DNA of 64,000 bases from Candidatus Niyogibacteria bacterium (GTDB taxonomy: Bacteria > Patescibacteriota > Minisyncoccia > HO2-45-28). The position numbers were made by a program, and so were the translations under genes. Where the stretch lies: assembly GCA_016432485.1 (NCBI GenBank), contig CP066691.1, forward strand, positions 452,709-516,708, written 5' to 3'. The first letter of the stretch is position 1, and each line of letters starts with the position of its first letter. Under the pieces are notes generated by a model. The model did not search any database. It was not told where the DNA came from and saw nothing but the letters and a program-made list of their open reading frames with translations. This document shows, piece after piece, positions 1,536 to 57,668 of the stretch.

Positions 1536-4217
1536 TCAAATTATTCCAAAAAAGAACTTCTTGATATTCGCGGCGTCTCTTGAAAGCCACCGAGCATTCA
1601 TCCGTATGTGCTCAAGCGACTGTTCAATGGTGCGTTTGGCCGACGGCACGGGATGAGAAGCAAAAAATTCTTCTATTTCACGGGCCTTGCCTTCGGAAAC
1701 AAAGTCGTTGATAAGGCCGCCGATTATGCTTTGAAACATAAAAATTCCGCCGTCCGAATAGCGCCTACTTAACTCCGCAAAATTATTCTTCAGAAATTCC
1801 CACGCCCGATCGCGAGCGTACGCGTTTGCGCCGACGCTTCCGCTGATGAAAAAGACGTCTTGAGGCCTCACTTCATCCGAGAGCATAAATTCAAGGACTG
1901 ATTCAATCAGAGCTTGGGACCTGAATTTTCCAAGCGCTCTTAAAATTCTGGTCTTTTCTTCCGAAAGGCCTGTCGCGCGGTAAAGGTCAAGCAGGGCATG
2001 GTATTCCGCGTCGCTTCCATGGTCGGCCACAATCGCGTATACCGCTTCCTTCAAGTCGGGACTGATAAAACCGGATTTGAATTGCCTATACGCCTCAAAA
2101 ACAGTCGCGGGGTCTTTAGCTAAATTTGCAAAACCCCTTAAAATACGGGAGCGCAGAAGTTTATCGGTGTGGGTTTCGTTATCTTTCTGTTTCCATCCGA
2201 CATGCTCACTGATATCTTTCATCAATAGCCGCGAAAAATCGACCAACCCTCCTGAAAAATCAGTACTACAGAGCAAATTATCAAGCGAAGCCAAAATGCT
2301 TAAAATTTCCTGCCAGACGGCGTAATTTCTTTCTCCCCTGTAATACGGAAGCAACGAAAGAAGTTCCTCGGCTGAGACGCGTCCGGAGCGCGCGTTATAA
2401 AAAAGGTCGCTCAAAACTCCGAAACGATCTATTGGCGGAAGGTCGCCATTTGATAAAGGGACGCGCAATTTATGCAGAAACTCGGGCTCGTAATGAACGC
2501 GGCAAAAAGCCATTTGACCGGTGTTGATTTTCAACCATGTGTTGCCGGCGCTGAAAAGCGACTGATAGTCGGCTTCACTGCTCGGCATAGTTACGCGCAG
2601 TTCTCCCAAACCGCCGAGCTCAATGCCGAGCGGAATGGTCCAACGTTTTCCCCTCTCTTCGGAATCCAGAGTTTCGCCGCTTGAAAGAAACCTTTCTTGC
2701 CCCAAAGACACAAAGCCGCCGTCAATCCTCCTGACAGAAACCGAGGGATAACCCGCTTGTTTTGTCCAGCCGTCCATAAAAGATTTCACCGATTTGCCTG
2801 AAACTTCTTCAAAAACTTCGTAAAGTTCATCGGTTGAAGCATTTTTATAAGCAAAACGAATCAAGTAGGCCTTAAGACACTTTCTGAAAACCTCTTCGCC
2901 AAGATATTCAACCAGCATTCTTATGACGCAAGCGCCTTTTGAATAACTTATGGCGTCAAATATCTCATTTATTTCAGCGGGGTCGTTAACTTCAACTTCA
3001 ATCGGGTGAGTGCTTTTCAGGCCGTCTTTGGAAAGAGCGTTCGCGTATTCCCCGGCGACGAATTGCGTCTGAATGTCCCATTCTGGAAACAAATAATCGG
3101 TGCATTTCGGCTCAAGAAAGCTCGCGAACCCCTCGTTAAGCCACAAATCGTTCCACCATTTCATTGTCACAAGGTCTCCAAACCACATGTGCGTGTTTTC
3201 GTGAATGACGACTTCGGCTACGCGCTGTTTGGCTGAAGCAGCGGAATTTTCCGGGTCGTAAAGAAGCGTAGTTTCTCTGTAAGTCACAAGCCCCCAGTTC
3301 TCCATGGCTCCCGAGGCAAAATCGGGAACAGCAACCAAATCAAGTTTTGGCAAGGGATACGGCACGCCAAGATATTCTTCAAAAAATTCAATGCTCTTTT
3401 TGCAAGTATCAAGCGCGAACCGGCCCTGCTCAACTTTTCCGGGCGTCGTCCAGACCCTGATGGGTTTCCCGGGAATAACTATTTTTGATTTTTGACCATT
3501 ACCGCAACATTCGCCCTCGCAACTTTCGGCCTCTAGTTCAAGATCTTTGGTCCTGGTTTCGATTGATTCAAATTCTCCAACCGCAAAAGCCAGAGCGTAA
3601 GTTGACATCGGCGGAGTTTTTTCAAACTGGATAACTTTAAAGGGCCAAAAATCGGGGCATCTCTGAACCGGCATATTGGACAAAACCTGCAGATGGCGCG
3701 GCACAATAAAAGCAATTCTGAAAGTCGCTTTTATCGCCGGCTCGTCCCAGCACGGGAAAGCCCTGCGGGCATCGGTTGCTTCAAATTGAGTACAAGCCAT
3801 CCATCTTTTTTCACCGTTCACTTCATAACTTGAACGATAAAAACCGCGCATTTTGTCGTTCAAAACTCCGCTAAAATTGATGGTGAGCGCGTATCTGCCT
3901 TTTTGGAAAACCCTATCAAATTTTAAAGTAACGGTCTCTGCCTCCTTATTAAATTCCGTACCCTGCAATCTGGGGATGAATCTGTCGCGAGCAATGACTT
4001 TCACGTTATATATTGAAAGGTCTACGGCGTGCAGGACGATTTCCGAGGTTTCTTCCAAAACTTCAATCTCTATCAACTCACTGCCATCAAAAGTGAATTT
4101 TTTAAGATTGGGAGTAAATGTCAAGTAATACTCATCGGGTCTTACATTTTTAGGAAGACGAACGCCGGGTCTTACAGCTGACGCTTCCGGACACACGATC
4201 CTGCCTCCTTTTTTCAA
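1536..4217 (-). CDS. pepN: aminopeptidase N, M1 family zinc metallopeptidase
   Basis: GAMEN motif 'SGAMENWGLV' and 'HENTHMWFGDLVT...WLNEGFASF' (HEXXH-X18-E). Confidence 0.85.
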   Translation of the reverse strand: MKKGGRIVCPEASAVRPGVRLPKNVRPDEYYLTFTPNLKKFTFDGSELIEIEVLEETSEIVLHAVDLSIYNVKVIARDRFIPRLQGTEFNKEAETVTLKFDRVFQKGRYALTINFSGVLNDKMRGFYRSSYEVNGEKRWMACTQFEATDARRAFPCWDEPAIKATFRIAFIVPRHLQVLSNMPVQRCPDFWPFKVIQFEKTPPMSTYALAFAVGEFESIETRTKDLELEAESCEGECCGNGQKSKIVIPGKPIRVWTTPGKVEQGRFALDTCKKSIEFFEEYLGVPYPLPKLDLVAVPDFASGAMENWGLVTYRETTLLYDPENSAASAKQRVAEVVIHENTHMWFGDLVTMKWWNDLWLNEGFASFLEPKCTDYLFPEWDIQTQFVAGEYANALSKDGLKSTHPIEVEVNDPAEINEIFDAISYSKGACVIRMLVEYLGEEVFRKCLKAYLIRFAYKNASTDELYEVFEEVSGKSVKSFMDGWTKQAGYPSVSVRRIDGGFVSLGQERFLSSGETLDSEERGKRWTIPLGIELGGLGELRVTMPSSEADYQSLFSAGNTWLKINTGQMAFCRVHYEPEFLHKLRVPLSNGDLPPIDRFGVLSDLFYNARSGRVSAEELLSLLPYYRGERNYAVWQEILSILASLDNLLCSTDFSGGLVDFSRLLMKDISEHVGWKQKDNETHTDKLLRSRILRGFANLAKDPATVFEAYRQFKSGFISPDLKEAVYAIVADHGSDAEYHALLDLYRATGLSEEKTRILRALGKFRSQALIESVLEFMLSDEVRPQDVFFISGSVGANAYARDRAWEFLKNNFAELSRRYSDGGIFMFQSIIGGLINDFVSEGKAREIEEFFASHPVPSAKRTIEQSLEHIRMNARWLSRDAANIKKFFFGII

Positions 4218-4267: not shown

Positions 4268-4837
4268 ATGAAAATAATAGTCGGGCTCGGAAATCCGGGG
4301 AGCGATTATTCCGAAACGCGCCACAACGCCGGACGGCTCGCTTTGGAATACTTTGCCAAGAAAAATGATTTTCCGGATTGGAAGGAATCAAACAAATATT
4401 TTTCTCTTATTTCGGAAGGGGAAATCGGCAAAAAGCCGGTTTTATTGTTATTGCCAGAGACCTTTATGAATAACTCGGGCAAGGCGATCGCGCATCTAAA
4501 AGCTAAAAGCTATAAGCTAAAAGCTGAATTGATCGTCCTTCACGACGATATTGATTTGCCGTTGGGAAAAATCAAAATTTCATTCGGTCGGGGTTCGGGC
4601 GGGCATAAAGGAGTTGAATCAGTAATCCGCGCGTTAAAAACAAAAGATTTTTGGCGGATTCGTATTGGCGTCTCGCCGAAAAACAAGCTGCCGCATAAAA
4701 AAATTCCGGACTTTCTGACCTCGCCTATGCGCAAACCGGATTTTGAAACACTCAAAAAGTCATTCAAAAAAATTTCCGAAGCGTTGGAAACCATGCTTTC
4801 GAAATCCCCAGAAAAAGCGATGAATTTATTTAATTAA
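4268..4837 (+). CDS. pth: peptidyl-tRNA hydrolase
   Basis: N-term 'MKIIVGLGNPGSDYSETRHNAG', Pth fold length; contains short in-frame tandem repeat aaagct(a)taagct. Confidence 0.85.
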   Translation: MKIIVGLGNPGSDYSETRHNAGRLALEYFAKKNDFPDWKESNKYFSLISEGEIGKKPVLLLLPETFMNNSGKAIAHLKAKSYKLKAELIVLHDDIDLPLGKIKISFGRGSGGHKGVESVIRALKTKDFWRIRIGVSPKNKLPHKKIPDFLTSPMRKPDFETLKKSFKKISEALETMLSKSPEKAMNLFN

Positions 4838-6234: not shown

Positions 6235-8160
6235 CAACTTAATACACTTTTGATCGCAGGGCTTGCCCCATATTTTTTGGAAAAGCCCGTTTTGTGGTGG
6301 GAAGAAAATGAGGAGGAAATAATAAAAAAGCGCGGTCTAAGTCCGACTTGGACCAGAAACACGGTTTTGGTGGAAACGGGACAAAAAATAAAGCAGAGCG
6401 AATTTTTACGCCGAATTTCGGAGTTGGGATATGAAAGGGTTTTTGAAACGATACTCCCCGGGACTTACAAAACGCTTGGCTCAACGATTGTTATCTTTCC
6501 AATCAATAAAAAAATCCCTTGGGGCGTGGAATTCTCGGGCAATATCGTAGAGGCGATTGAAAAACACGAAACAATCGCGAAAGGCGGTCTGACACTAAAG
6601 CCGCAAAAAAATAAAGAATTGAGTATTGCTTCTGGCGATTATGTCGTCCATATAGACCACGGAATCGGAATTTTCCAGGGCCTGGAAGAAAAAAACGGCG
6701 AAAATTATTTTAAAATTGAGTACGCTTCTCCCGCGCACGGAGCCGACCCCGACGCGCTTTTCGTCCCGATTTCGGAAAAAAAACGCCTTGAGCCGTATTA
6801 CGGCCTTGAGCGTCCGCGGTTAAACAGGTTGGGCAGCCAATTCTGGACCAGAACCAAAAAGAAGTCGCGCGAAGAAATAATCGCCTTCGCCCAAGAACTC
6901 ATAAAAATTTATAAAAATCGCGTCATTCAAAAACGTCCGCCCTACCTGCCTGACTCGTTTGAAAAAATTGTCTGGGATTCATTCAGGCACGAACTTACTC
7001 CGAGCCAGGAAAACGCCCTTGAAGAAATTTTAAGCAATATGGCTAGTCCCGAACCTATGGATAGAATCTTAACGGGAGATGTCGGCTTTGGGAAAACCGA
7101 ACTGGCGCTGCGCGCCGCGCTTCGCGCGGCACTAAACAGCAGACAAACGGCGATCCTCGCGCCAACCACCGTGCTTGCCGACCAGCATCTTTCGGTCTTC
7201 AAAGAACGTCTTAAAAATCTGCCGATAAAAATCGGGGGCTTAACCCGCTTATCACCCGAAAAAGAAAATAAAAAAACGCTGGAAAATCTGGCCGAAGGCG
7301 AAACGGATATCGTTATCGGCACGCATCGCTTGTTTTCAAAAGACGTTAAATTCAAAAATCTGGGATTGGTGATAATAGACGAAGAACAACGCTTTGGGGT
7401 AAGACACAAAGAACATTTCAAAAAACTTCATCCGGCAACCGATATCCTTTCGCTTTCAGCAACTCCCATCCCGCGCACACTCACTTTCTTTTTGGCCGGA
7501 GTACGGCCGGCAAGCCAAATCAAAGAGGCGCCACGCGGTCGCAAAGCGCCTCTCACCAAAGTTTTACCTTTTTCCAAAAAATTTGTAAAGGAAGCTCTGA
7601 AAGCCGAGTTAAAACGCGGGGGACAGGTTTATTATGTCGCCAACCGCATCAAAAACATTCCCAAAATTGTTGAAATGCTGGAAAAACTTATTCCGAAATC
7701 CAAAATCGGCTCAATTCACGCGAGATTGTCCGAAAAAAATATAATTGAAACGATGCGCGATTTTCGCGAGAAAAAAATAGAGATTCTTGTTTCAACCACC
7801 ATTATTGAAAATGGCCTGGATATTTCTTCGGTAAACACTTTAATTGTTGAAAACGCGGCGCTTCTCGGACTTTCGCAAGCGCATCAGTTAAGAGGCAGAA
7901 TCGGGCGAGGCGATACGCAAGCAATCGCTTATTTCTTGTATAATCCAAAAAACCTCATGCCTAAGGCCGAAAAGCGCCTGAACAATCTTCTTAACTTTCA
8001 GGAGCTTGGCTCCGGGCTTGAACTCGCAAAACGCGATTTGGAAATCAGGGGCGCGGGCAACATTTTGGGCCGCGAACAATCGGGTATAGCCAACCGCATC
8101 GGCTGGAATTTATATTTTCAGTTTATGAACGAAGCGACTGAAAATCTTTCTCTATTTTAG
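6214..8160 (+). CDS. mfd: transcription-repair coupling factor Mfd, short form lacking N-terminal UvrB-homology domains (start codon uncertain)
   Basis: CarD/TRCF RNAP-interacting domain 'GDYVVHIDHGIGIFQGL', helicase motifs 'GDVGFGKTE', 'DEEQRFGV', 'LSATPIPRTL'. Confidence 0.7.
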   Translation: MAEKPTKQLNTLLIAGLAPYFLEKPVLWWEENEEEIIKKRGLSPTWTRNTVLVETGQKIKQSEFLRRISELGYERVFETILPGTYKTLGSTIVIFPINKKIPWGVEFSGNIVEAIEKHETIAKGGLTLKPQKNKELSIASGDYVVHIDHGIGIFQGLEEKNGENYFKIEYASPAHGADPDALFVPISEKKRLEPYYGLERPRLNRLGSQFWTRTKKKSREEIIAFAQELIKIYKNRVIQKRPPYLPDSFEKIVWDSFRHELTPSQENALEEILSNMASPEPMDRILTGDVGFGKTELALRAALRAALNSRQTAILAPTTVLADQHLSVFKERLKNLPIKIGGLTRLSPEKENKKTLENLAEGETDIVIGTHRLFSKDVKFKNLGLVIIDEEQRFGVRHKEHFKKLHPATDILSLSATPIPRTLTFFLAGVRPASQIKEAPRGRKAPLTKVLPFSKKFVKEALKAELKRGGQVYYVANRIKNIPKIVEMLEKLIPKSKIGSIHARLSEKNIIETMRDFREKKIEILVSTTIIENGLDISSVNTLIVENAALLGLSQAHQLRGRIGRGDTQAIAYFLYNPKNLMPKAEKRLNNLLNFQELGSGLELAKRDLEIRGAGNILGREQSGIANRIGWNLYFQFMNEATENLSLF

Positions 8161-8188: not shown

Positions 8189-8791
8189 ATGCTGATGAAA
8201 TTATTCGGCTCATTTACACTATTAATCTTTTTTATAATTTTTGGGCCGGTTAACGCGCAAGCGGCGGGATTTGGTATATCGAAATACGGAGAAGCCGGCT
8301 ATGGCTACGGCACAACTACCGGAGAGACTTCTACCGTCCGGATGACCAGTACATCAGGAACGGCCGGCGCCACGACTTCGGTTATGGCCACCACTTCTGA
8401 AATGACCCTTGCCACAACTTCTGAAATGGCCACTGCCACAACTTCTGAAATAACCCTTGCCACAACTTCTGAAATGGCCACTGCCACAACTTCGGTTATG
8501 GCCACCACTTCTGAAATAAGCTCGCCCTCAATTAAACCCGCGGCCGCCCCAGCGCGCATAAAAGATAAAAAAATTTCACCTAAAAACAAAACAACTTCGG
8601 CGCCGGAGCCGACAATAGCTTTAATTTCTACGGAAGAAGAATATAGCACCTCAACAAAAGCCGTTCTGAAATCTCAAATGCCTATTAAAACATTGGTAGT
8701 CGGCATAATCACCAATAGTCTGAAAATAGCGCGGCGCGTGATAAAATATAAACTGTGGCAAGCCGGTCAATTTTTATTTTCAATATTTTAA
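8189..8791 (+). CDS. secreted Thr/Ser-rich tandem-repeat protein (mucin-like)
   Basis: signal peptide; protein repeats ATTSEMTLATTSEMATATTSEITLATTSEMATATTSVMATTSEI mirrored by 18/36-bp DNA tandem repeats at ~8385-8525. Confidence 0.5.
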   Translation: MLMKLFGSFTLLIFFIIFGPVNAQAAGFGISKYGEAGYGYGTTTGETSTVRMTSTSGTAGATTSVMATTSEMTLATTSEMATATTSEITLATTSEMATATTSVMATTSEISSPSIKPAAAPARIKDKKISPKNKTTSAPEPTIALISTEEEYSTSTKAVLKSQMPIKTLVVGIITNSLKIARRVIKYKLWQAGQFLFSIF

Positions 8792-17144: not shown

Positions 17145-17612
17145 ATGAAACTTTTTAACTTTTCAACTCTTAAACCTTTTAACTCTTTAACCTTTAAACT
17201 TTTTAACCTTTTAACCTTTATCTCTTTGGGCTTTATTGTTGCCGTCTTTTTGCCGTCTTTCGCTTTAGCTCAACAGCCGCTTGTCCCTTGCGGCGGCCCG
17301 GGACAGCCCTGTACTTTCTGCCATTTAATGGAGCTTGCGAATAGAGTCGTCAAGTTTGGCTTCAACTTCCTTATCCTGCCGTTGGCTGCCCTAGGAATAC
17401 TGGCTTCCGGCCTAACCTTGCTTACTGCCGGCGGGTCCCAAACCCAGCTGGAAAAGGGCAAGTCAATGCTCAAAGCCATCATCATCGGCTTCTTTATTGC
17501 CGTTTCGGCTTGGGTTATAATAAATACTATACTCGGAACATTAGTACAAGAAGGGCAGTTCTTTAATCCGTTAACGGAACCATTTCCGGCATGCGTTACC
17601 CCGAGGAACTAG
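17145..17612 (+). CDS. T4SS-pilin-like / TrbC-VirB2-like small membrane protein (paralog 1)
   Basis: signal peptide + two hydrophobic helices, 'AGG...K..IIG..IAVSAW.IIN' pattern shared with next three ORFs. Confidence 0.5.
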   Translation: MKLFNFSTLKPFNSLTFKLFNLLTFISLGFIVAVFLPSFALAQQPLVPCGGPGQPCTFCHLMELANRVVKFGFNFLILPLAALGILASGLTLLTAGGSQTQLEKGKSMLKAIIIGFFIAVSAWVIINTILGTLVQEGQFFNPLTEPFPACVTPRN

Positions 17613-22747: not shown

Positions 22748-22834
22748 ATATTAGGATTCATTTTCTCCCGATTTTGTTCAAATTTTTAATTTGAATACAA
22801 AATCGAGGACCCCGTTAATTTAAAATAAAAGATT

Positions 22835-23322: not shown

Positions 23323-24405
23323 TCAGGAATTCTTTAAGTCCCGGGCCGCTTCTTCGGGAGAAACGGCCACCACCTCAACACCCGTCCCCAACTCAAGGCC
23401 GGCCCATATAGAAGTTTTGGGCAGTATTTCAATATGCCAATGATAATAACTTCTGCCGTCTTTGGCCGGAGCGGTGTGTATAAAAAAATTGTAGTCGGGA
23501 TCGTTCATGGCTTTTTTTATTTTTTTAAGGGAGGCAATCATGGCATCGGCCAGCGCCATTCTCTCCTTCGCTTTCAAATCCTCAAAATTTCCGGCGTGCC
23601 TCTTTGGAAAAATCCTGGTCTCATAAGATACGCGCGAGGCGAACGGCGCCAAAACCGTAAAATAATTATTTTCGTAAATCACGCGCGTTCGTTTTTTGCG
23701 TTCCCACTCAAGCATGGCGCAATGAACGCATTTTTTATGGCGCTCAAAATAAATTCTGGAACCCTCCAAGCTCTTCGCGACATCCGGCGGTATAATGGGC
23801 AAAGCAATGAGTTGAGAGTGGGGATGAAAAATAGTGGCGCCCGCTCCCGGCCCCTGATTATGAAATATCAAAATATATTCAATGCATTCCTCGCGGGCTA
23901 GAGTCCGCCAGCGTTCCTGATAAGCGTAAATTAAAATCTCGACTTCTTTGGAAGTCATTTCCGATATTCTTCGGAGGTGGTCGCGGGTAATTATAACCTC
24001 GTGAAATCCTACCCCTTTCATTTTCGCGTACGGACCGTCGGACGTTATCGTCGGACAAATTTTATGCTGTTCAAGAGCCGGATATTTATTTTGTATAATC
24101 TGAACCCACCAGTTATCAAATGAGCTTTCGGCTTTTAGTCCCGACTCAGTCGAGGATCCTCGATGGCTTTGCCATCGGGACTTATAGCTTTTAGTCGGGT
24201 GAGGCAGCCACAATAAAGGAGGGGGCGTGCCTCTTTTCTGCGGGTCGTCAAACGGACAATTTTTTTTTGACGAACTAAGACGCCTTCTTTTTGACGCTTT
24301 GGTTTGAGGCCTTTTGGCGCGCTTGGCGGCTACCAATATCCAGTCGCCGGAAACCAAATCCCGCCTGAATTCCGAGCCGTCAATATTTTCTATTTTTCCC
24401 GTCAT
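23323..24405 (-). CDS. galT: galactose-1-phosphate uridylyltransferase (HIT superfamily), carrying an in-frame palindromic insertion
   Basis: 'RAKRP', 'CPF', 'NKYPAL', 'FHNQGPGAGATIFHPHSQLIALP', second half-site 'YYHWHIEILP'. Confidence 0.65.
   Translation of the reverse strand: MTGKIENIDGSEFRRDLVSGDWILVAAKRAKRPQTKASKRRRLSSSKKNCPFDDPQKRGTPPPLLWLPHPTKSYKSRWQSHRGSSTESGLKAESSFDNWWVQIIQNKYPALEQHKICPTITSDGPYAKMKGVGFHEVIITRDHLRRISEMTSKEVEILIYAYQERWRTLAREECIEYILIFHNQGPGAGATIFHPHSQLIALPIIPPDVAKSLEGSRIYFERHKKCVHCAMLEWERKKRTRVIYENNYFTVLAPFASRVSYETRIFPKRHAGNFEDLKAKERMALADAMIASLKKIKKAMNDPDYNFFIHTAPAKDGRSYYHWHIEILPKTSIWAGLELGTGVEVVAVSPEEAARDLKNS
24131..24196. repeat. palindromic element bounded by 10-bp direct repeat gcttttagtc, in-frame inside galT
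   Basis: DR at 24131-24140 and 24187-24196; stem agtcccga/tcgggact enclosing perfect palindrome tcgaggatcctcga; DR-to-DR distance 56 bp (not a multiple of 3); ~19 extra codons inferred from protein alignment. Confidence 0.5.
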
Positions 24406-25139
24406 AATATATACCTGTTTCTCCAAAAATTAAAACGGATTTTTAAAGTATCGCGCAAGACCTGCAGATATCCTGAAAGTTTAACATGGCTCCTGGGATC
24501 GTTAATCCAATAAGCCGGGATAATGCCGATTTTGTAGCCAAGCGCTTTAGCCAAAGCCAGTGTCTCAATATCAAATCCCCAGCCCGGTACGCGCTGCTGG
24601 GAAAAAATCTTTTCGGCAGCAAAGTCACGGAAGGCCTTAAAACCGCATTGGGTATCCCACACTCCGCGAATTGCCACCCATTGAATAAATAAATTTCCCA
24701 AGGTGCCCATCAAACGTTTATACCATACTTGCGCCACCGCTTGCCTCGCGCCAGGGGCGTCTTTGGAATCGCGCGAACATATCACCACTTCATAACCCTG
24801 GTCAAAAAACGGGCGCATCTTATCAAAATGGCTTATGTCCGTGGAGTTATCGGCGTCGGTAAAAAGCCGTATCCGCCCCTTGGCCGCGAGCATCCCCACT
24901 TTAACCCCCTCTCCCTTGCCCTTGTTTTTCTGACTGATTATTTTTAGATTCGTTATCTCCGGAATTTTTTGCCTGACGATTTCGGCGGTTTTATCGGGAG
25001 AAGCGGCATCAGAAACGATTATTTCGGATTTAAACGGCTGACGCGCGAGATAAGCTCCGATAATATCAATCGTTTTGCCGATTCTCTTTTCTTCATTATA
25101 AGCCGGAATTATAACTGATAGGTAAACATCCTCATTCAT
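24402..25139 (-). CDS. family 2 glycosyltransferase (dolichol-phosphate mannosyltransferase-like)
   Basis: 'LSVIIPAYNEEKRI', 'DADNSTD'. Confidence 0.8.
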   Translation of the reverse strand: MNEDVYLSVIIPAYNEEKRIGKTIDIIGAYLARQPFKSEIIVSDAASPDKTAEIVRQKIPEITNLKIISQKNKGKGEGVKVGMLAAKGRIRLFTDADNSTDISHFDKMRPFFDQGYEVVICSRDSKDAPGARQAVAQVWYKRLMGTLGNLFIQWVAIRGVWDTQCGFKAFRDFAAEKIFSQQRVPGWGFDIETLALAKALGYKIGIIPAYWINDPRSHVKLSGYLQVLRDTLKIRFNFWRNRYIL

Positions 25140-25553: not shown

Positions 25554-25630
25554 TTACCTATTTTATAAGAATTTAAAATATTATCCATTCAAAATGATAA
25601 CTCAATAACAAAAAGTATATCGCCTTATCA

Positions 25631-25666
25631 AAAAAGTTGGCCTGCCACGCAACTGCGCGGCAGGCC
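25631..25666 (-). terminator. Rho-independent terminator for GC-rich gene (8-bp GC stem ggcctgcc/ggcaggcc + TTTTTT on minus strand)
   Basis: perfect stem 25639-25666, aaaaaag at 25631-25637. Confidence 0.7.
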
Positions 25667-25696
25667 AAGAACCAAGGGGTCGAAGCCCCACAAGCC

Positions 25697-26266
25697 CTAC
25701 TTTCCGGAAACAACCCGAGAGCAGGTAAACCACCCACCCGGGCTCCCAACCGAGAGGGCCTCGACGCGCCAGCAGCCGTCGACATCGTACCGATTCGCGC
25801 CCACGACACAGAGTTTTCCACCATACCCTCGGATGTAGGCGAAATGCCAGCCTCTACGACCCTTAAGGCACTTCAGGAAGTGAAACAGACAAATCTCGTT
25901 CTTGTCTCCGAGCTCCTTTAGAATCGGCCCGTCCACCGATGCCTTCTTGAGCTCGTGGACATTGAGCTCTGCCCGGGGAATGCCCTCCTCAACCTTGCCC
26001 CTGAACAGGCGGTCAAAGCTGGACTCGGCGTAGGCATCTGCCTCTTCGAGGGCCCGGTCGTCAACCACGAACCTGTCGTCGGCGCCCTCCACTGCGACCG
26101 ACTCCACGAACTTGAGGAGGTCGGATTCGTGTGGAATGAGACCGCGAAGGAATTCCTGAAGACCAACCGGGTCATCAATCCACCTCTGCCTGTCGGCTCT
26201 CCCCATACTCGGAAGGTTTTCTGCGATTCGAGCAATGAGCTTGGCAACCTGCTTCTCTACATTCAT
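25697..26266 (-). CDS. hypothetical protein encoded in a ~60% GC island (probable horizontally acquired gene); start at ATG 26266 with AGGAGG SD
   Basis: AAGGAGGaaaaaccgccATG; terminator downstream; composition sharply different from flanks; ORFs open on both strands (GC effect). Confidence 0.5.
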   Translation of the reverse strand: MNVEKQVAKLIARIAENLPSMGRADRQRWIDDPVGLQEFLRGLIPHESDLLKFVESVAVEGADDRFVVDDRALEEADAYAESSFDRLFRGKVEEGIPRAELNVHELKKASVDGPILKELGDKNEICLFHFLKCLKGRRGWHFAYIRGYGGKLCVVGANRYDVDGCWRVEALSVGSPGGWFTCSRVVSGK

Positions 26267-26429
26267 GGCGGTTTTTCCTCCTTGGGGTTTTCGCCATTTT
26301 TGTTTTGTTAGAGGGCCATCCCAATGACAGCCATAGCCAGAAAACACCGAAGAATCGGGACCTTTTGGCTATAGCCGCCAAATTGCAAGTAGCAATATAA
26401 AAGAGCTGTTATTTTTTAAGCATAGCAAA

Positions 26430-41059: not shown

Positions 41060-41524
41060 TTAATCGCTTAATTTTTTAAAAGTCCTTTTGTGCATATCAA
41101 CCACCGCTTTAATTATTAAACTAATTAGTGCGACAAGAACTGTGATAAGACCCAGAGCAAGACCCGCGATAGGACCCGTGACAAAACCTGCGCCAAAGCC
41201 CGCGATAAGACCCAGGGCAAGACCCGCGATAAGACCTAGAACAAGACCCGTGACAAAACCCGCGACAAGGTCTTCGTAATCTGCTCTATATTTTTTTAAA
41301 ACAGGAAACAACCAGAGATAAACGGATAAAATGAGGTTCAGATAGAGTGGGAACAAAAAGACGTCAAACCAGCGGTTAACTGTTATTGAAAAAGAGCCGA
41401 TTGCCACTTCGTAGGCGTGAGGAACATTTGCCAAGTAGCTGACAAGACCCCAGCCAACAGCGTAAATCAGAGCACCCCAGAAAAAAACGACCCCCATCAG
41501 ATAAAACTTCTGTGTTTGGGACAT
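41060..41524 (-). CDS. membrane protein with glycine-zipper repeats (GLxLGLIAG)n
   Basis: repeats 'GLVLGLIAGLALGLIAGFGAGFVTGPIAGLALGLI' and underlying DNA tandem repeats ~41140-41260. Confidence 0.45.
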   Translation of the reverse strand: MSQTQKFYLMGVVFFWGALIYAVGWGLVSYLANVPHAYEVAIGSFSITVNRWFDVFLFPLYLNLILSVYLWLFPVLKKYRADYEDLVAGFVTGLVLGLIAGLALGLIAGFGAGFVTGPIAGLALGLITVLVALISLIIKAVVDMHKRTFKKLSD

Positions 41525-56038: not shown

Positions 56039-56183
56039 TGAAATTTAGTTTAACATACGAATATTGACGTGCGAAAGGGGGTCGGGGAAAACTGTAGTTT
56101 TCCCCGTAGAGGAAAACAGCGACCCCGCAGTTGCGGGGGAGCGCTAGAAACCGAGAGGTTTCTAGGGAGGCCTTTGGCCGACG
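56039..56183. mobile_element. ~145-bp GC-rich element of three consecutive perfect hairpins inserted at the fusA start, flanked by ~71-bp direct duplication of fusA 5' end (55968-56038 and 56184-56254)
   Basis: hairpins ggggaaaac/gttttcccc, ccccgc/gcgggg, ctagaaacc/ggtttctag; duplicated 5'UTR+21 codons. Confidence 0.5.
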
Positions 56184-57068: not shown

Positions 57069-57184
57069 AAATTAAAATTACCATGCAAAATGACCAAACT
57101 TCAAATTTCCCCCGACCCCCGTCTCGGACACCCTCGGTTTCTGACGGTCGCTTCGCTCCCTGCCTTCCGACGCGGGGGAAATTT

Positions 57185-57222
57185 CTTCGCTCATTTCGTG
57201 TTACCACGCGAAATGAGCGAAG
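57185..57222. promoter_or_regulatory. 14-bp perfect stem hairpin overlapping rpsG stop codon
   Basis: cttcgctcatttcg-tgttaccacg-cgaaatgagcgaag; no T-run. Confidence 0.4.
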
Positions 57223-57668
57223 GCACGGTTGGCTTCGGCCATCTTGTGGGTGTCCTCTTTTTTCTTAACCGCGGCTCCTTCGTTCTTGGACGCCAGAATC
57301 AGTTCTTCAGCCAATTTTTCAGACATTGGTTTTCCTTTTTTGGATTCGGCCGCCTGAATCAACCAGCGCATCGCGAGCGTCAACCTCCTTTCCGGCCTGA
57401 CTTCGCGCGGCACCTGATAATTCGCGCCTCCAACCCGGCGCGACCTGACCTCAAGCGCGGGCGAGATATTTTTAATTGCTTCATCCAAGACCGTCATCGG
57501 TTCTTTTTTGGCTGTTTTTCCGGCTAAATCCAACGCGCTATAAACGATTTTTCGCGCAATATTTTTTTTACCGGAAAGCATAATATGATTAATAAGTTTT
57601 GAAACAACAATGGACCCGTAGCGATAATCGGGCTCAATTGATGTTTTTATTTTTACTTTTCTTCTCAT
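57201..57668 (-). CDS. rpsG: 30S ribosomal protein S7
   Basis: 'MRRKVKIK...IEPDYRYGS..V.KLIN'. Confidence 0.9.
   Translation of the reverse strand: MRRKVKIKTSIEPDYRYGSIVVSKLINHIMLSGKKNIARKIVYSALDLAGKTAKKEPMTVLDEAIKNISPALEVRSRRVGGANYQVPREVRPERRLTLAMRWLIQAAESKKGKPMSEKLAEELILASKNEGAAVKKKEDTHKMAEANRAFAHFAW

Follow-up and report, generated by a model that had tools for sequence, protein, structure and literature searches.

Several classes of short palindromic DNA have been described in bacteria. Repetitive extragenic palindromes (REPs) are imperfect palindromes of 21-65 nt and REPINs are inverted doublets that fold as hairpins in single-stranded DNA or RNA, both with stems that are kept by compensatory change and without a target-site duplication (TSD), and REPs are occasionally found inside genes, notably in those of replication and repair (PMC3116915, PMC6006769, PMC3733652). 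REPIN singlets have been proposed to be decayed remnants (PMC3116915), and hairpins are recognised by the HUH-Y1 enzymes, which rely on short guide sequences and do not duplicate their target (PMC6006769). Rickettsia palindromic elements (RPEs), as summarised in a later account citing Ogata et al. 2000, are inserted in frame in unrelated genes and comprise ten families of about 100-150 bp, each of them described there as encoding a conserved peptide (PMC10969869). The subject of this study is a palindromic 42-nt element in a stretch of 64,000 nucleotides, hereafter the window, of the Candidatus Niyogibacteria contig CP066691.1, where it lies in frame within a gene for a GalT-like protein of the HIT family (Table 1).

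The host of this gene belongs to the Patescibacteria, or candidate phyla radiation (CPR), whose tiny and streamlined genomes are thought to hold little mobile DNA. The feature is very likely one copy of a dispersed family of minimal hairpin-doublet mobile elements of Patescibacteria that was inserted in frame, and it is in its identity and insertion history that we place the greatest confidence. In its behaviour the element resembles RPEs and in its architecture a REPIN, yet it departs from both in defining respects. With RPEs it shares its palindromic nature, the host-dependent bacterium with a reduced genome, the in-frame location in unrelated housekeeping genes and the gain of a tolerated peptide, whereas it differs, in a comparison made by description only, in its length of 42 nt, in its use of all frames and both strands and in its occurrence in Patescibacteria. 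With REPs and REPINs it has in common the short compensated palindromes, the inverted doublet, the decayed singlets and the absence of a TSD. Unlike in REPINs, its hairpins abut without a spacer in a unit of only 36-48 nt. More than half of its copies reside in long open reading frames (ORFs) whereas REPs are predominantly extragenic, and its core is near-identical across the superphylum, in contrast to REPs, which are specific to a species and evolve together with their REP-associated tyrosine transposase (RAYT). Its low copy number per genome and its preference for heptanucleotide arrays set it further apart. Elhai et al. are said to have described in 2008 the small dispersed repeats (SDRs) of Nostoc as hairpin-forming mobile repeats of about 21-27 nt that are nested in each other and in other repeats, and cyanobacterial genomes as rich in short tandemly repeated repetitive (STRR) heptanucleotide sequences; SDRs are smaller and belong to another phylum with another sequence, and this likeness is a lead only.

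Table 1. Coordinates of the element, its parts and its surroundings in the window.
Feature	Coordinates	Strand	Description
Element core	24139..24180	(-)	Coding strand TCCCGATGGCAAAGCCATCGAGGATCCTCGACTGAGTCGGGA; in-frame translation SRWQSHRGSSTESG; 42 nt = 14 codons
Hairpin A	24157..24180	(-)	TCC-CGATGGC / AAA loop / GCCATCG-A-GGA, as sequence TCCCGATGGC-AAA-GCCATCGAGGA; 24 nt; 10 bp, one bulged A; predicted fold
Hairpin B	24139..24156	(-)	TCC-T-CGAC / TGA loop / GTCG-GGA, as sequence TCCTCGAC-TGA-GTCGGGA; 18 nt; 7 bp, one bulged T; predicted fold
Upstream array part	24181..24195	(-)	A CTAAAAG CTATAAG; holds the second copy of GCTTTTAGTC
Downstream array part	24118..24138	(-)	CTAAAAG CCGAAAG, then degenerate CTCATTT; holds the first copy of GCTTTTAGTC
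Host gene	23323..24405	(-)	GalT-like HIT-family nucleotidyl transferase/phosphorylase; annotated as 'HIT domain-containing protein', Candidatus Niyogibacteria
Half copy	22766..22809	(-)	Solo B-type hairpin with extended AT-rich stem, TCCTCGA-TTTTGTATTCAAATT-AAAA-ATTTGAACAAAA-TCGGGA; weak match to covariance model R1

The insert in the GalT-like gene

The host ORF extends on the minus strand over 23323-24426, with the likely and annotated start at 24405. The initial annotation had named it galT and placed the feature between the CPF and NKYPAL blocks, a position that is borne out, whereas the name holds only in the wider sense of a GalT-like HIT-family protein and not of an E. coli-type GalT. 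In matches to Pfam and PDB, the best solved relative is the Arabidopsis At5g18200-type protein (1z84, E = 5.5e-56), compared to only 2e-14 for GalT of E. coli. The element is located in a variable loop flanked by the motifs LLWLPHP and DNWWVQI. Among the 20 nearest homologues, the stretch from LLWLPHP to DWWVQI comprises 5 residues in P0002, 13 in P0003 and P0010, 20 in P0004, 23 in P0008 and 26 in the protein investigated here. The excess, initially put at about 30 residues relative to E. coli GalT, amounts to 13-21 residues relative to the loops of the closest orthologues, with the element itself accounting for 14. When the host protein was modelled with AlphaFold, with a moderate mean predicted local distance difference test (pLDDT) score of 65.5, residues 74-94 score below 50 and are devoid of secondary structure, which is consistent with, but no proof of, a tolerated surface loop.

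The compared GalT-like genes are orthologues, as confirmed by synteny, and their alignment shows that those nearest to the window lack the insert. On the coding strand, the window reads ACTAAAA GCTATAA G[42 nt]CTAAAA GCCGAAA, whereas P0003, which is colinear and contains an equal number of units, reads ACTAAAA ACTATAA ACTAAAA ACCAAAA, and P0010, which is colinear with the window minus 42 nt, carries the similar 7-periodic sequence AAAACTA AAAACTA TAAATTA AGAACTG. In the closest relative (L001) the loop is exactly 63 nt (42 + 21) shorter. After removal of the core from the sequence, Tandem Repeats Finder (TRF) detects 4.3 CTAAAAG units across the junction, and the same deletion recreates an exact match of 22 nt (CTAAAAGCTATAAGCTAAAAGC) to a second array in the window, (CTAAAAG)x4.3 with one CTATAAG unit at 4496-4525 (+), which is contained in the peptidyl-tRNA hydrolase gene pth (4268-4837). 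A shorter match of 14 nt at 4503-4516, considered as a product of chance, was rejected as such since deletion of the 42 nt extends it to these 22 nt. The recreated match, together with the orthologues without the element, defines the boundaries of the core, whose G+C content of 60% compares to 45% in the window.

The two copies of GCTTTTAGTC, found at 24131-24140 and 24187-24196 with a spacing of 56 nt, had been interpreted as a TSD whose distance is at odds with a preserved reading frame. Both copies are located as described and they are the only ones in the 64 kb, for a chance expectation of 0.18. However, they are two units of a heptanucleotide array that is also present in orthologues without the element, and therefore do not constitute a TSD. 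The spacing of 56 nt is composed of 14 + 42 nt, and since the net gain is exactly 42 nt, corresponding to 14 codons, there is no frame paradox. In the lineage of this genome, a copy very likely inserted without TSD between two units of a pre-existing CTAAAAG-type array, which in the GalT-like enzyme encodes a putative surface loop whose length varies across the family. Being 42 nt long and free of stops in all six frames, the element left the gene open with 14 extra residues, whose translation is probable from the intact frame.

Family members, their fold and their host genes

In an exact scan covering one genome per Genome Taxonomy Database (GTDB) species, an 18-mer from the core matched 54 stretches, compared to about 17 expected by chance according to our own arithmetic for 1.2e12 positions. 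About 38 of the 54 contain the whole element, with the consensus GTCCCGATGGCAAAGCCATCGAGGATCCTCGACAAAGTCGGGAC, and the matches are nearly all labelled as Patescibacteria, including Saccharibacteria, Yanofsky-, Magasanik-, Sungii- and Staskawiczbacteria, Paceibacterota and others, with several metagenome-assembled genomes (MAGs) carrying copies on two or three contigs. A scan of metagenomes with a complementary pattern matched more than 120 stretches with at least 121 copies, at least 98 of them non-redundant. Together, the two scans provide at least about 140 non-redundant copies, almost all from Patescibacteria, and the family statistics reported below refer to the approximately 140 copies from the GTDB scan and the metagenome matches listed. 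The covariance model R1, built from 28 copies, identifies 24138-24181 with 71.2 bits (E = 3e-17) and also recovers copies without the 18-mer seed. The claim of an inserted, mobile and palindromic element that left the frame open is thus well founded, in light of about 140 copies in unrelated genes elsewhere and of its absence in the closest orthologues.

The suspected further copies were found in other genomes and metagenomes, whereas in the window neither a pattern with up to 3 mismatches nor blastn-short nor the covariance model with its filters off detected a second full copy, and the only other match is the weak half copy listed in Table 1. The density of the element is generally low, with roughly one copy per tens of kb. 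No match was obtained from Rfam over 23800-24500 at E up to 10, none of the copies in 13 loci coincides with an Rfam family at the gathering thresholds, and the element was not matched in viral contigs, phage records or plasmid records. A search of full-text literature returned no paper that deals with palindromic elements or with heptamer repeats of Patescibacteria, which, as its coverage is incomplete, is absence of evidence only. The family is apparently undescribed so far.

These copies also bear on the idea that the palindrome arose locally, by template switching or slippage in a hypervariable loop or as an artefact of assembly, and has no relatives elsewhere. Its appeal lies in the indel-prone character of the loop and in the unrelated hairpins at the same spot in two orthologues (L002 and L006). 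It is hardly conceivable in view of the approximately 140 near-identical copies elsewhere, which come from many projects, and of the intact ORF. An assembly artefact is ruled out by L012, an independent assembly with an identical locus. A source for a template switch was sought in the flanks, where the arms are matched by 7 nt only, which is at the level of chance.

The fold of the element corresponds to two directly abutting hairpins, of which hairpin B is a shortened inverted copy of hairpin A. In the family alignment the loop of hairpin A varies whereas its stem is kept, and hairpin B takes the general form TCC-N-CGAC / 3-nt loop / GTCG-GGA, with a bulged base that is freely variable (T, A, G or C). 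The pattern used in the metagenome search had fixed hairpin A only, leaving hairpin B unconstrained for a covariation test, and in this set three pairs of hairpin B have changed in a compensatory manner (10 cells), a level that 0 of 500 shuffles reach. An example is the co-change from C-G to U-A at the closing pair, and 99.4% of the cells of the hairpin are paired. An alternative fold composed of an outer stem and a central palindrome shows no compensatory change and acquires mismatches exactly where the two-hairpin fold shows paired co-changes. The most common size is 42 nt, found in 65 of 109 measurable copies, followed by 48 nt (15 of 109) and by 36 nt, which is mainly found in nested copies, and there are longer derivatives with expansions of AT-rich stems or loops. 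All 13 distinct 48-nt variants gain three complementary pairs in hairpin B, so that in these variants the two hairpins are essentially reverse complements of each other. This makes the unit an inverted doublet of a hairpin of about 24 nt with the feet TCC/CGA...TCG/GGA, and the 42-nt form has lost 3 bp in its second hairpin. The terminal inverted repeats of the element are GTCCCGA/TCGGGAC.

The sequence features that had first drawn attention to the locus are present, namely the stem AGTCCCGA (24137-24144) / TCGGGACT (24175-24182) and the palindrome TCGAGGATCCTCGA at 24150-24163, and to these we add a small hairpin that had been overlooked, (GA)TGGC-TTT-GCCA(TC) at 24162-24176. Compared to dinucleotide shuffles, segments of 46-73 nt fold with z-scores of -3.5 to -4.9, with 0 of 200 shuffles being as good, and this excess holds for DNA and RNA and for either strand. 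In the stability of its fold, the segment ranks about tenth among all 50-nt windows of the 64 kb.

Of 140 copies, 79 lie inside stop-free stretches of at least 120 residues, and 18 of 20 host ORFs analysed with Pfam are identifiable as unrelated housekeeping genes. They encode NusA, UvrC, two Mur ligases, MurB, a Wzy-like ligase, a DHH phosphoesterase, trigger factor, topoisomerase I (TopA), a penicillin-binding protein (PBP) transpeptidase, TsaD, TsaE, LigA, a subunit of Phe-tRNA synthetase, FolD, Fpg, a PilB-like ATPase and the ribosomal protein L22. On its own strand the element is read in all three phases (by 10, 9 and 10 copies) and it is also read on the opposite strand, yielding unrelated peptides such as SRWQSHRGSSTKSG, PDGKAIEDPRQSR, PMAKPSRILDKVG, PDFVEDPRWLCHR and SRLCRGSSMAPPSG from at least five different frames. 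Its translation in different frames and strands across hosts excludes a protein motif, and we thus regard it as a DNA element and not as a protein module. The consensus shares its lack of stops in six frames with 3.8% of composition-matched shuffles. A length divisible by three is found for 73 of 79 copies in long ORFs compared to 13 of 23 non-coding copies (p = 1.8e-4), and the element is co-oriented with its host gene in a ratio of 53:26 (p = 0.003).

Several non-coding copies are found directly beside tRNA genes, often within a few tens of nucleotides. In three genomes (L021, L040, L061), the spacer between element and tRNA has a common sequence and the right flank is shared, partial copies abut or overlap the ends of tRNAs in L027 and L033, and L052 and L026 are listed as further non-coding copies near tRNA genes. 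On the Saccharibacteria-labelled contig L061, a match to a group I intron (Rfam RF00028, 83 bits) at 3869-4062 (-) is located beside a tRNA gene.

This proximity is one of the arguments for a cis-acting element selected by the host, such as an uptake-type signal, a site bound by a protein or a hairpin acting in RNA stability or as a terminator, that was spread by recombination or horizontal transfer. Such a role, which does not exclude mobility, would also agree with a core that is almost identical across distant CPR lineages and with hairpins that are kept by compensatory change. We consider it improbable as an account of the family, since the copies, whose density is low, are missing in close orthologues and occupy unrelated housekeeping ORFs in every frame and in either orientation, and since they are nested in each other and degrade to half copies. 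In addition, the element lacks a U-tract for termination and matched no Rfam family.

A few full copies were found on MAG contigs that are not labelled as CPR, in four cases as Gammaproteobacteria (L010, L029, L050, L060) and in two as Dehalococcoidia (L037, L043). They are either on mis-binned or mislabelled contigs or reflect a spread beyond the CPR. L012, which carries the locus of the window, is itself labelled as Saccharibacteria whereas the identical protein is labelled as Niyogibacteria.

Insertion sites, nesting and heptanucleotide arrays

A second line of evidence on the mode of insertion comes from four copies that are nested in other copies, two in L031, one in L034 and one in L134. 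Removal of exactly 36 nt from each of them restores a well-formed host element of 42 or 48 nt, one of which is identical to an independent copy elsewhere. The nested junctions share at most one base, and two of the four copies have inserted at the identical point GGATC^CTCGAC. Judged from the sequences of the GalT-like locus and the four nested copies, the element enters its sites without generating a TSD. The consensus of these sites is loose, an A/T-rich stretch ending in G, followed by the element and then CWA (WWG^CWA).

The same observations weigh on the initial proposal of a classical miniature inverted-repeat transposable element (MITE), which would be moved by a DDE transposase and have the 10-bp GCTTTTAGTC repeats as its TSD. 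The resemblance is genuine with respect to the terminal inverted repeats, the direct repeats that bracket the element and the many dispersed copies. However, the repeats are heptamer units that are found in the same number in orthologues without the element, where the net difference of 42 nt includes no added TSD, and with the four nested insertions, whose junctions contain no duplication, the model is contradicted at five sites. The length of 42 nt is moreover below the range of MITEs, and no parent insertion sequence (IS) with these ends was seen in 1.27 Mb, which is a weak test. The term 'MITE-like' is thus appropriate for the terminal inverted repeats and the dispersed copies but not for size, duplication or parentage, and a MITE in the strict sense is very improbable.

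A further feature of the insertion sites is their periodicity. The joined flanks are 7-periodic in 20-22% of the copies compared to 0.3-0.45% of random positions in the same loci, an effect that is specific to a period of 7 and not found for 5, 6, 8 or 9. The unit of the array varies by locus and includes CAATTTT, CAAATTC, GCAAATA, CTAAAAG and others. In a census of 139 of the loci L001-L183 and the window, comprising 1.0 Mb of element-bearing DNA with cores deleted in silico, we counted 265 period-7 arrays of at least 2.8 units, compared to 30 for a period of 6, 59 for 8, 42 for 9 and about 10 each for 5 and 10-12. Of the period-7 arrays, 40 touch a core junction, compared to 0-4 for other periods. 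Period-7 arrays occur about once per 4 kb, many of them in genes and typically with 4.3-4.9 units, which is the length expected from an in-frame expansion by 21 nt. Since most of the 265 arrays contain no core, heptanucleotide arrays are an abundant and independent feature, within which the element is preferentially located. Their excess resembles a mutational signature that extends over the genomes of these Patescibacteria. A model in which the arrays serve to restore the reading frame was rejected, as they also flank a non-coding copy (L026 7439-7495) and as most of them lack a core.

The arrays might alternatively result from the element itself, if it generated a 7-bp TSD whose units were multiplied by slippage, which within genes could bring back the frame, or remained as scars of repeated insertion and excision, so that arrays without core, as in the loop of P0003 and in pth, would be excision footprints. 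The 7-mers abutting the element on the left and right match at six or more of seven positions in about 20% of the copies compared to 0.6% in the background, and for a period of 7 only. The difference of 42 + 21 nt to L001 would fit this idea, as would the CTAAAAG/CTATAAG unit pattern, which is found around a core in MurB of a different genome (L023/L042) and without core in pth of the window. Against it stand the 225 of 265 arrays without a nearby core, which make the arrays a far more abundant feature, their presence around the non-coding copy in L026, where there is no frame to restore, and the complete absence of duplication in nested insertions. Besides, loops of 11-13 residues are the norm of the family and a loop of array length is thus not obviously an addition. 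We consequently view a duplication that seeds the arrays as a minor and quite improbable rival, and favour the targeting of arrays by the element in light of the orthologues of the GalT-like locus, the many arrays without core and the duplication-free nested insertions.

Copies may also be old. The half copy of the window is located in the spacer between a Sm_multidrug_ex gene and tpiA, where the closest relative L001 contains a full two-hairpin copy with matching sequence (within the R1 match at 1795-1885), to whose B half it is orthologous. Copies can thus be shared by related species and decay to singlets.

Other small hairpins were observed near copies or in place of them. In P0008 (L002) and P0004 (L006), nearly the same position of the array in the GalT-like gene is occupied by different and unrelated GC-rich hairpins, CCCCGTAGC-11 nt-GCTACGGGG within a perfect (GCTACAA)x4 array in the former and CTGGCCGG/CCGGCAG in the latter. 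NusA (L036) was considered as a clean empty site and failed as such, since its copy is located in a hypervariable linker with about 50 extra residues that is full of other hairpins. This linker (7420-7590) contains several nested hairpins, including a stem of 13 bp, CCCCGTTAGAAGT...ACTTCTAACGGGG. The hairpins in L002, L006 and L036 suggest that there are several families of small hairpin elements.

Mobilisation, implications and further features of the window

The paired hairpins, the absence of a TSD, the insertion into the hairpin loops of other copies, the loose target site and the decay to solo hairpins together point to a structure-specific enzyme that would act on single-stranded DNA and mobilise the element in trans, similar to the HUH-Y1 enzymes (RAYT or the TnpA of IS200-IS605) in case of REPs and REPINs. 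By analogy, such an HUH-like mechanism is a possible one, which we put forward tentatively. The parallel to the subterminal hairpins of IS200/IS605 and of their miniature derivatives includes hairpins instead of sequence-defined inverted ends, the lack of a TSD, a possible short preferred site and the presumed single-strand chemistry (PMC6006769), whereas no transposase gene or long element with these ends was seen in 1.27 Mb, the ends of our element differ by 3 bp only and its target WWG^CWA is loose. The CCGA/TCGA feet resemble the 'CnGA' foot reported for class 3 TnpA-Y1 (PMC6006769), which is a resemblance only. In the window, the top strand of the element resides on the G-rich strand, which is a single case. 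That the core is near-identical suggests a highly conserved partner enzyme or else a horizontal spread that is frequent.

Several observations weigh against our account of a mobile element moved by single-strand chemistry. The window holds just one full and one half copy, and no polymorphism between filled and empty sites was seen within populations. A tblastn search for a Y1 transposase in 1.27 Mb with an IS608 TnpA query, which is a weak test, gave no match. The tag that defines REPs, GTAG/GTGG or CGTC, is absent and the consensus foot is instead (G)TCC-CGA. Oriented by GC skew, the copies are distributed 66:48 (p = 0.11), in a manner that tracks the strand of the ORF, which does not establish the bias relative to the replication fork, towards the lagging-strand template, that would be expected of an IS200/IS605-type insertion. 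The signal for lengths divisible by three is mostly due to the 42- and 48-nt classes (p = 0.25 in their absence). Moreover, selection on the encoded peptide could explain why copies are co-oriented with their host genes, and a core that is near-identical across deep CPR lineages could signify a conserved host function rather than pure selfishness.

With its occurrence throughout the radiation and within essential genes, including those for NusA, topoisomerase I, DNA ligase, L22 and tRNA-modification enzymes, the 42-nt element may help to account for the unusual insertions and the variable lengths that have been reported for CPR proteins. It ranks with the smallest coherent mobile units described so far, and its precise insertion without duplication would provide a compact substrate for single-strand transposition chemistry. 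The element and the heptamer arrays favoured by it may serve as markers for mis-binned CPR contigs, and as sources of spurious protein 'motifs' they call for caution in gene calling and in alignments of CPR proteins. The abundance of heptanucleotide arrays needs a separate explanation. In a wider and more speculative view, which we regard as rather doubtful, the abutted hairpin doublet of 36-48 nt, near-identical throughout the radiation, that enters heptamer arrays and the hairpins of other copies without duplication, and routinely essential genes in frame, would be minimal mobile DNA of a previously undescribed kind. The arrays would then arise from its own machinery or from one coupled to it that works in a 7-nt register, and both together would act as a lineage-specific engine by which loops and linkers of CPR proteins evolve, driven by a conserved enzyme.

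Elsewhere in the window, the most stable 50-nt folds, with energies of -27.8 to -30.2 kcal/mol, include those in 25573-26347 and at 25636-25685, 56116-56165 and 57176-57225. The first of these regions is a GC-rich stretch between ruvX and map with overlapping and unconvincing ORFs, which could represent a foreign insert or a gene for a non-coding RNA. TRF also detected tandem repeats at 8369-8505 (24/48-nt unit x5, GCCACAACTTCTGAAATGGCCACT), 17148-17220 (8/24-nt unit x9, AACTTTTT) and 41130-41269 (12/60-nt unit x11.7, GCGACAAGACCC).

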